Positions 17,003 to 19,875 of a stretch of 22,310 bases of DNA are shown piece after piece. Origin of the DNA: Candidatus Bipolaricaulia bacterium (GTDB taxonomy: Bacteria > Bipolaricaulota > Bipolaricaulia > JBHIAT01); assembly GCA_046758705.1 (NCBI GenBank), contig JBHIAT010000044.1, positions 1 through 22,310 on the forward strand, in the 5' to 3' direction. Both the position numbers and the translations under genes were made by a program. Every line of letters begins with the position of its first letter. The stretch's first letter is position 1. The notes beneath the pieces are model-generated. The model did not search any database. It was not told where the DNA came from and worked only from the letters and a program-made list of their open reading frames with translations.

Positions 17003-18049
17003 TCATGATACAGTGGCCTCCTCAACTTGGCGACGGGTGATCCGCCTGCCAATCACCTCGGCGATCCGTCCCAGTTCATCCATCAGCCGGATGAAATCCT
17101 CGGGAAGGAGCGCCTGAGCGCCGTCACATAATGCGTTCCCCGGATCGTGATGGATCTCGACGAGCAGTCCATCCGCCCCGGCCGCCACCCCAGCTCGCGC
17201 GAGTGCCATCACCGGTTTTCGGATCCCCGCCGCGTGGCTCGGATCGACGATGATCGGCAAATGAGATCGCTCTTTGATCGCCGGGATCGCTGACACATCG
17301 AGTAGGAACCGGTGATGGTCGCCGAAGCTGCGGATCCCCCGCTCACACAGGGTGACCTGCTCGTTCCCCTCGGCCATGATGTACTCAGCAGCCATGAGCA
17401 GTTCCTTAATCGTCGCCGCCATACCGCGTTTGAGCAGGACCGGTCGGTCAACGTTGCCAACCGCCTTGAGCAAATCGTAGTTCTGCATGTTCCGGGTGCC
17501 GATCTGCAGGATGTCGGCATACTCGGCGACCAGCGCCACCTGGTCGACCGCCCGAACCTCGGTGACGATCAGCAGACCGTGGGCATCGGCCGCCTCCCGC
17601 ATCATCCGTAGGCCTGCCGCCCCGAGACCCTGAAAACTGTAGGGGGAAGTCCGCGGTTTGAACGCCCCACCCCGCAGTACCTTCGCCCCTGCCGCAGCCA
17701 CGATTCGGGCGATCGCCTGGATCTGTTCCTCGCTCTCGATCGTACACGGACCGGCCATCATCACCACCTCATCACCGCCGATCCGGACACCGTCAAGCTC
17801 AATGACCGTCCCTTCCGGTTTGAATCCACGGCTGGCAAGTTTGTAGGGCTCGGTGATCTCCAGCACCTCGTGGACGCCGTCAAGCACCTCGAGTTCCCGG
17901 GCGTCGCCCCCCTCTGGTTCGCCAATCGCCCCGAGAATCGTTCGGGTCACCCCCGTCACCCGATGAACCTGAAACCCAAATGCCTTCAACTTATGGGTCG
18001 CCGCCTCGATCTGCACTTCGGTCGCGTTCGGTTTCATCACCACAACCAT
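17003..18049 (-). CDS. aroF: DAHP synthase type I-beta with N-terminal ACT/ferredoxin-like regulatory domain
   Basis: MVVVMK N-terminal domain, AGPCTIES, RGGAFKPRTSPYSFQG, QIGTRNMQNY, LLKRG, LCERGIR, DPSHAAG, ALCDGAQ. Confidence 0.96.
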   Translation of the reverse strand: MVVVMKPNATEVQIEAATHKLKAFGFQVHRVTGVTRTILGAIGEPEGGDARELEVLDGVHEVLEITEPYKLASRGFKPEGTVIELDGVRIGGDEVVMMAGPCTIESEEQIQAIARIVAAAGAKVLRGGAFKPRTSPYSFQGLGAAGLRMMREAADAHGLLIVTEVRAVDQVALVAEYADILQIGTRNMQNYDLLKAVGNVDRPVLLKRGMAATIKELLMAAEYIMAEGNEQVTLCERGIRSFGDHHRFLLDVSAIPAIKERSHLPIIVDPSHAAGIRKPVMALARAGVAAGADGLLVEIHHDPGNALCDGAQALLPEDFIRLMDELGRIAEVIGRRITRRQVEEATVS

Positions 18050-18157
18050 CTTCTTGAACCCCCCTTTCGGTCTCTGACAGATGGAAGAACATGGACATAC
18101 ACCGCTTTTGTCCTAGAACACTTCAAAAAGAGTTTGGCGGAATCGGAGGTTGGTGAA

Positions 18158-18265
18158 TTATGCCCCTTGCGGGGCAAAATAGGAGGCAAAGAAGACAAAC
18201 CAGAAGAATCGAGTTGAGATGCTGCTTGTGAGATTCTCCTTCAGGTGCTGCGGTCCACTATGCAT
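18158..18265 (-). CDS. Putative aroF leader (attenuator) peptide, 35 aa: MHSGPQHLKENLTSSISTRFFWFVFFASYFAPQGA
   Basis: GGAGG RBS at 18277-18273, 7 nt before ATG 18265. Eight of codons 20-30 are aromatic (6 Phe, 1 Trp, 1 Tyr) and none of codons 1-19 are. The stop lies 108 nt upstream of aroF on the same strand. Confidence 0.8.
   Translation of the reverse strand: MHSGPQHLKENLTSSISTRFFWFVFFASYFAPQGA
18161..18176 (-). promoter_or_regulatory. GNRA-capped hairpin (UGCCCC-GCAA-GGGGCA) over the last leader codons
   Basis: Perfect 6-bp inverted repeat with a GCAA loop on the minus strand. No U-tract follows it. Confidence 0.65.
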
Positions 18266-18267
18266 GC

Positions 18268-18313
18268 CCACACCTCCCTCATACTGGTTTTTGCTATCAT
18301 ACCACACCTCCCT
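18268..18313. repeat. 12-bp direct repeat CCACACCTCCCT (minus strand AGGGAGGTGTGG) x2
   Basis: Copies at 18268-18279 (leader RBS) and 18302-18313 (promoter spacer). Confidence 0.85.
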
Positions 18314-18325
18314 ACTCTCTGTCAA
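18296..18325 (-). promoter_or_regulatory. sigma70-like promoter for the leader-aroF transcript
   Basis: Minus strand TTGACA (18325-18320), 18-bp spacer, TGg-TATGAT (18301-18296). It overlaps the 3' end of the glutaredoxin gene. Confidence 0.78.
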
Positions 18326-18557
18326 GCGTGAGCAACTCCTGAAGCGCCGCTGCATCGACCGCCCCCAAGAAGCGATCGACGCCGTCAACGGCGATCACCG
18401 GGATATCGTACCGGTATTTCTCATAGAGCTTGGGATCTTTCGTGATATCGACGATTTTGAGCCCGAAATCGAACTCTCCTTGGAGACTGCGAACCACCCG
18501 CTCCGCCTTGTGACACACGGGGCAATACGGCTTGCTGTAAACGGTGATCTCGGTCAT
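18312..18557 (-). CDS. Glutaredoxin-like protein (DUF836 type)
   Basis: 81 aa from ATG 18557: ITVYSKPYCPVC (CxxC), VDIT...LYEKYRYDIPVIAVDG (cis-Pro motif). Confidence 0.88.
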   Translation of the reverse strand: MTEITVYSKPYCPVCHKAERVVRSLQGEFDFGLKIVDITKDPKLYEKYRYDIPVIAVDGVDRFLGAVDAAALQELLTLDRE

Positions 18558-18585
18558 GGATCTATTGAAATACAGAGAAGAACTT

Positions 18586-19875
18586 TCAAGGGTTCCTCCT
18601 GTATTCAGGCTCAGGTTTCGATCGCAGCAGGTTGAAGGCGTAAACAGCATTAAAGACGAACGCGGCCTGACCCTGCCGGTAGACGATCCCGTCTTGGCGT
18701 CTCACGAAATCGAGGACCGCTTCAGACGCCTCATCCGGGCAGCAGGGGATCCCCCACCCTCGGTCCATCGCCAGGGTCATCATCTCTAGATCGGCCGGAT
18801 GATCGCCGAGGATGGCGGCACAAGGGTGCTCGATCTTCAGTGCCTCGATCGCCCGGACGAGACCGGCGGCCTTGTTCAGTTCCTTGGGGACTAGCCCGAC
18901 CGCGTCCGCCGGGAAGTAGATCAGATCGATCTCGTCAAGCAATGCCTCCAACGCGGCCGAGACCGATACAGGGCTCCTCCTCGATGGCTCCAGAATCTCG
19001 TTCAGCCAGGGATAGTTGCGACGGTAATGGGCCGTCAGCTCGTTCAACACCTCGTTGGGCTCCTCCCCGATGGTCTCCGCCGCCACTGTGGCCAACCCCC
19101 TCAGTAGCGCTCTCATCATCGTCTCGCTCGCTTCCAGCGCCCTCTGGGATCCGTCTGGATCGTTGGGCTTCAGCGTGATGTTGAACTCACTCCCTTTAAG
19201 ATGAAAGTCTCGATAGCCGCCAGCGAGCTCTCGGGTAACCAACTCAGAGATCTGCTTCTCCACCCGGTCGAATAGATTGAGAACCTTCTCATCCAACTCA
19301 GCGTAGAGCAGGATCTTCTCTCCACCCGGCGTGAAAATCCCCGCCCCTTGCTCATAAATGATCGAGAATCGCCCTGAGCCAACCATCTCTCGACCGAACG
19401 CTTGGATGATCAAACCCTGGATGTTCTCGAGCGTCTGACCGGTGTTGATGATGAACCGCATTTTGGGATATCGATGATAGAGCCGCTTCAGAGCGAAGAT
19501 CGTCGCCTCGGGGATCTCGTTGTCGGTGCCGCGCAGCCACCGCAACGTCTCATCGACGTCGGTGACGATCAGGCGGATCGGATGAATTCCTCGATCCAGC
19601 AGCCGACACGCCGCTTCCACCTCCGAGAGGGTGTTGTAGCACAGGATCTCTTTGCATTTCTTCTGCACGTCGGTCGACAGAGAGCCATTAGCCAACCACT
19701 CGTCGATCGCCGCGTCCATGCGGCTGAGCTGCTCTTTAAGCCGAGGCTCACATTCCACCCCTAGCCCGCTGAGCTGATCGACGATCGTATGAAGCCGCTG
19801 ATATTTCGAAATATCGATCGCATCGTAAACCGCCCTTAAGCTTTGGTATACTTGATTGCTGAGACGAGCTTCCAT
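18586..19875 (-). CDS. HAD superfamily hydrolase resembling a haloarchaeal family
   Basis: HAD motif I DVDETLR, motif II INTGQ, motif III NKAAG, motif IV GDHPAD, with a ~100-aa helical N-terminal extension. AGGAAGG upstream. Confidence 0.85.
   Translation of the reverse strand: MEARLSNQVYQSLRAVYDAIDISKYQRLHTIVDQLSGLGVECEPRLKEQLSRMDAAIDEWLANGSLSTDVQKKCKEILCYNTLSEVEAACRLLDRGIHPIRLIVTDVDETLRWLRGTDNEIPEATIFALKRLYHRYPKMRFIINTGQTLENIQGLIIQAFGREMVGSGRFSIIYEQGAGIFTPGGEKILLYAELDEKVLNLFDRVEKQISELVTRELAGGYRDFHLKGSEFNITLKPNDPDGSQRALEASETMMRALLRGLATVAAETIGEEPNEVLNELTAHYRRNYPWLNEILEPSRRSPVSVSAALEALLDEIDLIYFPADAVGLVPKELNKAAGLVRAIEALKIEHPCAAILGDHPADLEMMTLAMDRGWGIPCCPDEASEAVLDFVRRQDGIVYRQGQAAFVFNAVYAFNLLRSKPEPEYRRNP

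Follow-up and report, generated by a model that had tools for sequence, protein, structure and literature searches.

An aromatic leader peptide without an intrinsic terminator upstream of a DAHP synthase gene in Candidatus Bipolaricaulia, with codons complementary to the downstream ribosome-binding site

We analyzed a 22,310-nt stretch of DNA from a Candidatus Bipolaricaulia bacterium (assembly GCA_046758705.1, contig JBHIAT010000044.1, positions 1 to 22,310), hereafter called the window, in which a small open reading frame (sORF) rich in Phe, Trp, and Tyr codons lies upstream of an aroF-type gene encoding a 3-deoxy-D-arabino-heptulosonate 7-phosphate (DAHP) synthase. Both lie on the minus strand, and the parts of the system run from high to low coordinates. 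The sORF has its own Shine-Dalgarno (SD) sequence and a dense run of aromatic codons, part of which is complementary to the ribosome-binding site (RBS) of aroF, and it probably encodes a leader peptide that senses aromatic amino acid shortage by ribosome stalling. The features of the locus were as follows.

18296..18325, minus strand: promoter, TTGACA-18 nt-TATGAT with a TG before the -10 element; 11/12 matches, the top site within 20 kb.
18273..18278, minus strand: leader SD sequence GGGAGG, 7 nt ahead of the leader AUG.
18158..18265, minus strand: leader open reading frame (ORF) of 35 codons plus UAA (AUG at 18265-18263, UAA at 18160-18158); peptide MHSGPQHLKENLTSSISTRFFWFVFFASYFAPQGA.
18202..18240, minus strand: local helix of the purine stretch AGGAGAAUC (K-E-N codons, 18240-18232) with GAUUCUUCU (R-F-F codons, 18210-18202).
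18176..18208, minus strand: presumed stall zone, formed by the aromatic run of codons 20-30 (F F W F V F F A S Y F).
18181..18196, minus strand: pyrimidine-rich segment GUCUUCUUUGCCUCCU, codons V24 F25 F26 A27 S28 plus the U of Y29, holding the CCUCC motif.
18162..18175, minus strand: GC hairpin GCCCC-GCAA-GGGGC in the last leader codons, with the UAA stop 1 nt beyond.
18113..18157, minus strand: C-rich, G-poor tract covering the first 45 nt beyond the leader stop (C 0.31, G 0.13).
18112..18137, minus strand: spacer segment CCAAACUCUUUUUGAAGUGUUCUAGG, which can also pair with the aroF RBS.
18047..18064, minus strand: aroF RBS, consisting of GGGGGG, a 9-nt purine-rich spacer UUCAAGAAG, and the AUG (18049-18047).
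17003..18049, minus strand: aroF-type gene, DAHP synthase type I-beta, 348 aa with an N-terminal ferredoxin-like domain.

The source assembly comprises 3.7 Mb in 319 contigs and was the sole member of its own family among the genomes compared, the relatives described below being members of the same class. The sequencing runs listed as containing this DNA were all DNA runs from one study, with no RNA run among them. The aroF product matched PF00793 (DAHP_synth_1) with an E-value of 2.6e-74 and, over residues 1-67, PF18152 with an E-value of 2.7e-19; in the Thermotoga DAHP synthase, the ferredoxin-like domain mediates feedback inhibition by Tyr and Phe. The promoter was placed 24 nt upstream of the leader, and its sequence suggested that transcription would start near 18289. 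Eight of the residues at leader positions 20-30 are aromatic, and a spacer of 108 nt separates the leader stop from the aroF AUG. The GCAA-tetraloop hairpin over the last leader codons and the C-rich, G-poor tract after the leader stop had both been pointed out in an earlier reading of the letters alone (the sequence-only reading), and both were recovered here.

Two separate scans revealed no terminator-like site between the leader and aroF (minus strand, 18157-18050), in agreement with the sequence-only reading, which had noticed no hairpin followed by a U tract. Because no such terminator was found, the classical terminator-based interpretation of the trpL/pheL type was rejected. Over the whole window, 15 hairpin-plus-T sites were found against 15.3 expected, indicating no enrichment; the sole strong hairpin with a T run in the first 20 kb lay at 17-47 on the plus strand, with a 13-bp stem. 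Searches of the whole window against Rfam gave no match at the gathering score, including to Phe_leader and Trp_leader, and the region 17980-18340 gave only two matches, to unrelated families and both at chance level (E-values of 0.13 and 5.2).

Class and phylum coincide in the collection used; a search of the 184 genomes of the class found 67 with a DAHP synthase match at E <= 1e-60, and upstream DNA was compared at 48 DAHP synthase places (L001-L019 and L100-L120, minus duplicates, L001 being the window locus). These relatives are few and related, and correspond to some seven to ten independent lineages. At 16 loci in families f1, f4, f7, f10, and f11, designated type A, an aromatic sORF was present whose end lies 73-133 nt ahead of the DAHP synthase start: the window; L002, L100, L102, L103, and L116 (f7); L105 (f10); L101 and six loci of genus g4 (L003, L004, L104, L106, L107, and L110; f4); and L111 and L112 (f11). 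L118, a truncated near-copy of L116, was excluded from this count, and a single-protein contig scan showed that L020, from a Candidatus Acetothermia bacterium, has the same upstream leader ORFs as L101 (genome G092). All 16 type-A loci had a promoter, a leader SD sequence, an aromatic run, a CCUCC/CUCCU motif, a GC hairpin, and a UAA stop. The promoter was of the TTGAC-N17-TGCTAnnnT type and lay 13-52 nt before the leader AUG in 15/15 relatives scanned as well as in L105. The CCUCC/CUCCU motif occurred within the 60 nt before the hairpin in 16/16 loci, against 4.5 loci expected from shuffled sequences, in reading frames that differed among the leaders (GCC-UCC, AAC-CUC-CGC, and UUC-CUC-CAC). 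The terminal hairpin had 5-7 bp at the 16 loci, with compensatory changes in three of the five consensus pairs. C exceeded G in the 45 nt after the stop in all 15 type-A loci scanned, the exception being L105 (C 0.20, G 0.31), and C-rich codons specified most of the non-aromatic leader residues (P, S, A, L, T, and R). A hairpin-plus-U terminator was lacking in 13 of the 15 type-A relatives scanned; the two exceptions, each a hairpin with at least 5 U in 8 nt, were found in L003, where it is the leader hairpin itself, and in L110, where a mini-hairpin covers the SD sequence.

A second arrangement, designated type B, was found in families f5 (L109, L113, and L115) and f6 (L005-L014, L018, L117, L119, and L120), in which a Tyr/Phe-rich leader (..DGYYFPGGV or ..NYFFGYFYFVN), located about 345 nt upstream, precedes first a chorismate-mutase-like ORF and next the DAHP synthase gene. 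A hairpin with a U run was present in 13/15 type-B leaders, in f5 in the textbook form GGUCGGGGCC-GAAA-GGCCCCGACC followed by six U. Judged from its sequence, the f5/f6 arrangement is the classical attenuator of a two-gene operon, and these relatives indicated that the class does use intrinsic terminators. The CCUCC motif occurred in 0/15 type-B leaders, which are U-rich, so that composition may explain its absence. In the tree of DAHP synthases, the type-A genes formed one clade (support 100/97), and the type-B genes, L007, and a paralog from the source genome (L017) lay on the other side. Outside the class, Tyr/Phe/Trp-rich sORFs preceded the same type of DAHP synthase at L069, L173, L187, and L192, with a terminator called by the scan in two of the four and a hairpin with a U run seen by eye only in the other two; aromatic leaders before DAHP synthase genes thus seem widespread beyond the class. 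A metagenome scan with the DAHP synthase alignment showed no type-A leader among the matches listed (at least 80 loci, at most 64% identity).

Because the sORF bears an SD sequence, carries eight aromatic residues at positions 20-30, and is conserved at 16 loci, we infer that the leader is probably a ribosome-stall sensor of Phe/Trp/Tyr shortage located ahead of the pathway's entry enzyme and working without an intrinsic terminator. How a stalled ribosome might be read out was addressed by folding and by comparison among the type-A loci. Folding throughout was equilibrium nearest-neighbour prediction with chosen transcript ends, and a ribosome was represented by a footprint from -15 to +12 relative to its A site.

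On the transcript, 18196-18181 (GUCUUCUUUGCCUCCU) is complementary to 18064-18048 (GGGGGGUUCAAGAAGAU), which extends from the SD sequence through the AU of the AUG. The helix consists of 8 bp, an internal loop (U / UC), and 7 bp, with an energy of -18.9 kcal/mol by RNAduplex, and the pairing of the V-F-F-A-S codons with the aroF SD-to-start region proposed in the sequence-only reading was therefore read directly from the two strands. It was contained in the minimum-free-energy (MFE) structures of constructs ending at +30 and +40, and in the transcript from the start site to +40 it took 10.7 of the 18 RBS nucleotides in the ensemble. When a ribosome was placed on codon 25 or 29 of the +40 transcript, this helix was lost and the unpaired RBS nucleotides increased from 2.9 to 7.8-8.9 of 18, with the start codon then in a weak local stem. 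The local helix between AGGAGAAUC and GAUUCUUCU (-13.0 kcal/mol as a duplex), present in most of the MFE structures examined, was likewise gone once a ribosome sat at codon 20 or 25. The energy for opening -15..+4 was 12.7 kcal/mol in the free transcript and 10.8-10.9 kcal/mol with a ribosome at codons 21-33, compared with 12.3 kcal/mol with a ribosome at F20 and 13.0 kcal/mol with one at the stop. In a masking series of 16 constructs (two 5' ends combined with eight 3' ends), the RBS opening energy was 11.2-15.0 kcal/mol when free and 8.0-12.2 kcal/mol with a ribosome on codon 25 or 29, and masking shifted it by 0 to -4.1 kcal/mol, never upward. Predicted RBS accessibility thus usually rose and never fell on masking, so that the proposal of the sequence-only reading, which unchanged SD accessibility would have refuted, was not refuted on this point, although the predicted switch was small.

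Among the relatives, a matching helix was seen in f7. The RNAalifold consensus of five f7 sequences contained a 16-pair helix that joins AUCUUCCCGACCUUUU (I-F-P-T-F-W codons), which directly abuts the terminal hairpin, to AAGGAGGUUGGGAAGAU (from the SD sequence to the AU of the AUG). This segment is positionally equivalent to GUC-UUC-UUU-GCC-UCC of the window, and in both helices the first pairs join (A/G)UCUUC to GAAGAU in the start region; in a joint alignment of L001 with f7, the L001 helix was 3 columns out of register. L100 had 16 contiguous pairs, and in L116 the helix was kept by two double (compensatory) changes, UCGUUCCG:CGGAACGA replacing UCUUCCCG:UGGGAAGA. In predictions on the full transcript, the aromatic region held 15.4 of the 18 RBS nucleotides in L100, 14.9 in L102, 10.7 in the window, 9.0 in L116, 2.1 in L002, and at most 0.1 in the remaining loci. 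On masking, the RBS opening energy fell by 10.4 kcal/mol in L100, 5.8 kcal/mol in L102, and 1.9 kcal/mol in the window; the fall was at least 1.5 kcal/mol in 5/16 loci and at least 5 kcal/mol in 2/16, and the effect was null or opposite in L106, L107, and L112. Chance controls were needed because Phe codons (UUC/UUU) and C-rich codons naturally complement a purine-rich RBS, and 984 SD-bearing RBSs from the same genome served for this, with starts assigned by a simple rule (ORF of at least 200 codons, best SD). The proportion of these controls that paired with the leader as well as the cognate RBS was 0.2% for L100, 0.3% for L102, 6% for the window, 10% for L116, 19% for L112, 46% for L105, and 39-89% for the other ten loci. 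Covariation, which the sequence-only reading had proposed to look for, was seen as the two compensatory changes in f7, and the distribution of the helix over the family was patchy.

A number of results weighed against the codon:RBS helix as the switch. In the window, the helix was absent from the MFE structures of the +6, +20, and +60 constructs, and the aromatic region was the main RBS partner (at least 8 of 18 nt) in only 5/16 constructs, holding at most 4.0 nt in the other 11. The pairing was borderline above chance, depending on the segment considered: 2.2% of the 984 control RBSs paired as well with the 16-nt segment, a generous test since the segment had been picked for pairing, 6% with the 32-nt block before the hairpin, and 20% with the 57-nt aromatic region (-20.7 kcal/mol with its own RBS). 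Of 1000 mononucleotide shuffles of the leader region, 16% reached the native pairing, and although the native sequence ranked among the top 1.4% of 768 synonymous F-V-F-F-A-S versions, weighting these by codon usage left it only in the best 6%, which was not significant. The 266-nt leader was no better folded than shuffled sequences (z of +1.1; 171/200 shuffles equal or better). The opening cost of the masked RBS (8-12 kcal/mol) was about the genome mean of 9.5 +/- 4.0 kcal/mol (150 of 946 control contexts folded), and the free-state value of 12.7 kcal/mol was exceeded by 17% of the control contexts. The whole spacer was an equally good competitor for the RBS (-21.3 kcal/mol, against -20.7 kcal/mol for the aromatic codons). 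The second partner of the RBS proposed in the sequence-only reading was indeed present within CCAAACUCUUUUUGAAGUGUUCUAGG, at 18131-18122 and so one base off the approximate 18130-18121 given there, with -16.4 kcal/mol, and it was the RBS partner in the MFE structure of the +6 construct. The leader SD sequence paired with the aromatic segment at -16.2 kcal/mol and with the spacer at -19.2 kcal/mol, and in transcripts ending before the RBS, CCUCCU was paired with the leader's own SD sequence. The weak effect of masking is explained by this competition of the spacer and the leader SD for the RBS and the aromatic segment. In the family, the helix was the predicted main RBS partner in only 4/16 members, and in 9/15 loci the aromatic/CCUCC region held 6-11 of the 11 leader-SD nucleotides instead. 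L103, from the genus of L100, had three uncompensated mismatches in the helix, and L111, whose DAHP synthase is nearest to that of the window, was without the helix. The helix loci were scattered on the DAHP synthase tree, the label needing 3 changes, as few as in 95/500 shuffles, and in a 15 x 15 duplex matrix the cognate leader-RBS pairs were no stronger than the non-cognate ones.

Translational control, in which a codon segment masked by the stalled ribosome otherwise sequesters the aroF RBS, was the best single reading of these models, and we hold it tentatively because the helix is marginal and contested in the window and patchy in the family; that the codon:RBS pairing is the actual switch is plausible. 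Of the translational attenuation put forward in the sequence-only reading, the sensor and the absence of a terminator stood, whereas the effect of the helix was weak here and uneven among the relatives. When aromatic amino acids are plentiful, the ribosome would complete the 35-codon leader and depart at the UAA. The five hairpin codons put the stop 21 nt from the segment complementary to the RBS, and since the footprint reaches about 15 nt upstream of the A site, a terminating ribosome would leave that segment unmasked. V24-S28, with CCUCC, would then be free to pair with the aroF SD-to-AUG region, aroF would be poorly translated, and the untranslated aroF RNA with its C-rich tract might be exposed to Rho and decay. 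When aromatic amino acids are scarce, the ribosome would wait on codons 20-30, masking both the segment and the hairpin's 5' arm, and access to the aroF RBS would improve. Pairing of the freed 3' arm of the hairpin with the C-rich tract was also considered and was dropped, since only 4 bp were possible by hand.

Among the alternatives, Rho-dependent transcription attenuation as the primary switch fared best, though we consider it somewhat unlikely. Here the pyrimidine-rich codons and the C-rich tract after the stop, flanking the hairpin, would together form the Rho site; stalled and queued ribosomes would cover its upstream half and block loading, whereas a finished ribosome would bare the site and transcription would end before or early in aroF, and the codon:RBS complementarity would simply follow from C/U-rich codons facing a purine-rich RBS. 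The genome encodes Rho (PF07497, 119.5 bits, within a frame of 418 aa on contig C32), and the region ranked in the top 3% of minus-strand 78-nt windows by C minus G, although the bias itself is moderate (25 C vs 12 G in 78 nt). The excess of C over G after the stop in 15/15 type-A loci and the C-rich codons used for most non-aromatic leader residues are family-wide, which the RBS helix is not, but L105 lacks the C-rich tract. The absence of hairpin-plus-T enrichment in the window would also fit an organism in which factor-dependent termination is common, and Rho has been proposed for terminator-less actinobacterial leaders in one comparative study (PMC1262725). Against this explanation, the tract after the stop is bare in both states, so that the sign of regulation requires the upstream half to be essential for loading, and that half was predicted to be paired with the leader SD sequence in 9/15 loci; the conserved hairpin is given no role.

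That the leader senses the charging of aromatic tRNAs and acts through some unrecognised output, with the RBS complementarity incidental, appears quite unlikely. The output would be a protein or RNA binding the hairpin and the CA-rich tract, regulated decay, or a non-canonical terminator. Besides the sORF, only the hairpin adjacent to the UAA and the sequence that follows it are conserved in all 16 loci, and the thermodynamic switches were weak in most of them. At the g4 loci a spacer block with no assigned role (like CUCAGACUGUUCCGGCGGAUUCAUCC) is kept between the leader stop and aroF, part of which paired with aroF codons at about +27 to +38 in RNAalifold. However, no candidate partner emerged, a hairpin lacking the U run makes a poor terminator and the relatives use proper U runs, and a terminator melted alike by terminating and late-stalled ribosomes would give no sensible sign of regulation. 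In addition, the spacers of both the window and L100 contain a recurring GAUUC(C) word.

More improbable still is a relay between the two SD sequences, in which CCUCC closes the leader SD, the spacer segment closes the aroF RBS, and a stall would free the leader SD region, which resembles the aroF SD, to capture the spacer and release the RBS; control would still be translational, with the aromatic codons never contacting the aroF RBS. The leader SD was paired with the aromatic region over 6-11 of its 11 nt in L105 as well as in the 9/15 loci mentioned above, and the g4 loci had a 14-bp consensus helix, GGAGGCGA:UCGCCUCC, whose central 8 pairs were invariant in six sequences and extended beyond the SD core. 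In the window, the leader SD:CCUCCU pairing formed in transcripts ending before the RBS, the duplex of the leader SD with the spacer had an energy of -19.2 kcal/mol, and the aroF RBS was paired with the spacer in 11/15 loci. On the other hand, masking changed the RBS opening by less than 1.6 kcal/mol in precisely those loci, in the wrong direction in L106 and L107, further ribosomes would probably sit on the leader SD of a stalled message, and the invariant g4 pairs show no covariation. A non-regulatory sORF or a non-canonical terminator accounts for only the small remainder of probability.

A more inclusive view, which we regard as unlikely in its entirety, is that the 16 loci represent an undescribed attenuator architecture of this Acetothermia-type class, built from anti-SD codons masked by the stalled ribosome, a covarying GC hairpin before the UAA, and a C-rich tract. 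The anti-SD element would be shared by the leader SD and the gene SD, so that translation of leader and gene would be controlled reciprocally, with Rho as an amplifier, and this architecture would have replaced the terminator design that is still found on the paralogous DAHP synthase clade of the sister families.

Several neighbouring and genome-wide features were also recorded. A glutaredoxin-like gene (18312-18650, minus strand) reaches at its end 5 nt into the -35 region of the leader promoter, and as no terminator follows it, read-through could bring a longer 5' end into the leader; a 5' end at 18300 altered the predicted leader fold. Another 35-codon ORF (MSMFFH..., 17991-18098, minus strand) runs out of frame across the aroF start and includes two Phe codons; its SD sequence is weak and it has no counterpart in the relatives, and it is probably a chance ORF. 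The second DAHP synthase paralog of the source genome (L017, G000:C9:14499-15524) also has the ferredoxin-like domain and is 62% identical to the first, and no aromatic sORF was found within 500 nt upstream of it; regulation probably differs between the two paralogs. Across the 3.7-Mb assembly, no second convincing leader was found in two scans for sORFs rich in a single amino acid and one scan for aromatic sORFs, and no other SD-bearing sORF had a comparable aromatic run; candidates on contigs C36 and C251 were dismissed as their downstream genes are unrelated to the amino acid concerned. In family f3, about 20 DAHP synthase matches each contained exactly one in-frame TGA (for example, G167:C1:20031-21047, G155:C23:24696-25721, and L015 on G026:C89), whereas other families had none; this could reflect recoding, selenocysteine, or a shared break.

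Known leader systems resemble the window in part. The pheL/trpL attenuators of gamma-proteobacteria combine an aromatic codon run and ribosome stalling with a U-run terminator hairpin plus an antiterminator; the window shares with them the sORF with an aromatic codon run and, in our reading, sensing by stalling, but has neither the terminator nor the antiterminator that they need. In attenuation of the ermCL/cat type, the stall arises from an antibiotic together with the nascent peptide and acts through compact local hairpins, whereas the helix in the window spans about 130 nt. The tnaC peptide stalls at its own stop codon with free Trp and turns on a catabolic operon in a Rho-dependent manner. 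It is likewise a leader peptide without a terminator, and the C-rich tract by the leader stop in the window is a possible Rho site; however, tnaC responds to free Trp at a stop codon, whereas a codon run would sense starvation. A close parallel is Ms5788A, a polycysteine sORF of Mycobacterium smegmatis whose Cys codons pair with the SD sequence of the next gene; reporter fusions of both the translational and the transcriptional kind, together with compensatory mutants, showed control of translation there, and polarity affected the genes further along (bioRxiv 10.1101/834739). As in the window, the sORF is rich in codons for the end product, these codons are predicted to pair with the downstream SD, and there is no terminator; however, it concerns cysteine, its sORF is leaderless, and its very stable duplex runs along nearly the whole leader and was tested experimentally, whereas the helix in the window is marginal, has competitors, and is predicted. 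In the LEU element before actinobacterial leuA, a comparative find, regulatory codons lie in a stem with the SD sequence of the gene (Seliverstov et al. 2005, PMC1262725). It resembles the window in its candidate leader peptide, in a codon run pairing with the SD of a biosynthetic gene, and in the lack of a terminator, but it contains a conserved pseudoknot and its authors doubted control by a leader peptide and proposed a protein factor (PMC1262725); no pseudoknot was found in the window leader. The aroR leader before the aroF operon of Corynebacterium glutamicum, which responds to Phe limitation by transcription attenuation (Neshat et al. 2014, as described in the review PMC11802643), is also a Phe/Tyr-codon leader peptide upstream of a DAHP synthase gene, but it is described as acting on transcription, has a short Phe-Tyr-Phe motif, and belongs to a different phylum. 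In the literature library searched, whose scope left out about 1.7 million PMC articles and all subscription-only papers, the term 'leader peptide' never occurred together with 'Acetothermia' or 'Bipolaricaulota'.

The principle of end-product codons pairing with the next SD sequence is thus already known, having been shown in mycobacterial cysteine leaders; what is new here is a family of aromatic, terminator-less leaders in an uncultured phylum, with a conserved hairpin and C-rich module of its own. Terminator-less leader peptides, first noted in Actinobacteria, have remained an unsettled matter ever since, and the sole amino-acid-sensing example shown to act on translation is that for cysteine in mycobacteria. 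Within one candidate phylum, the same enzyme is preceded by both designs, a terminator leader on one DAHP synthase clade and a terminator-less leader on the other, and the two therefore lend themselves to comparing how the output of attenuators changes. If the helix is not the switch, the conserved hairpin and C-rich module would still need explaining; if it is, translational attenuation by end-product codons would extend to the entry step in the synthesis of aromatic amino acids, and to an uncultured hydrothermal-vent lineage.

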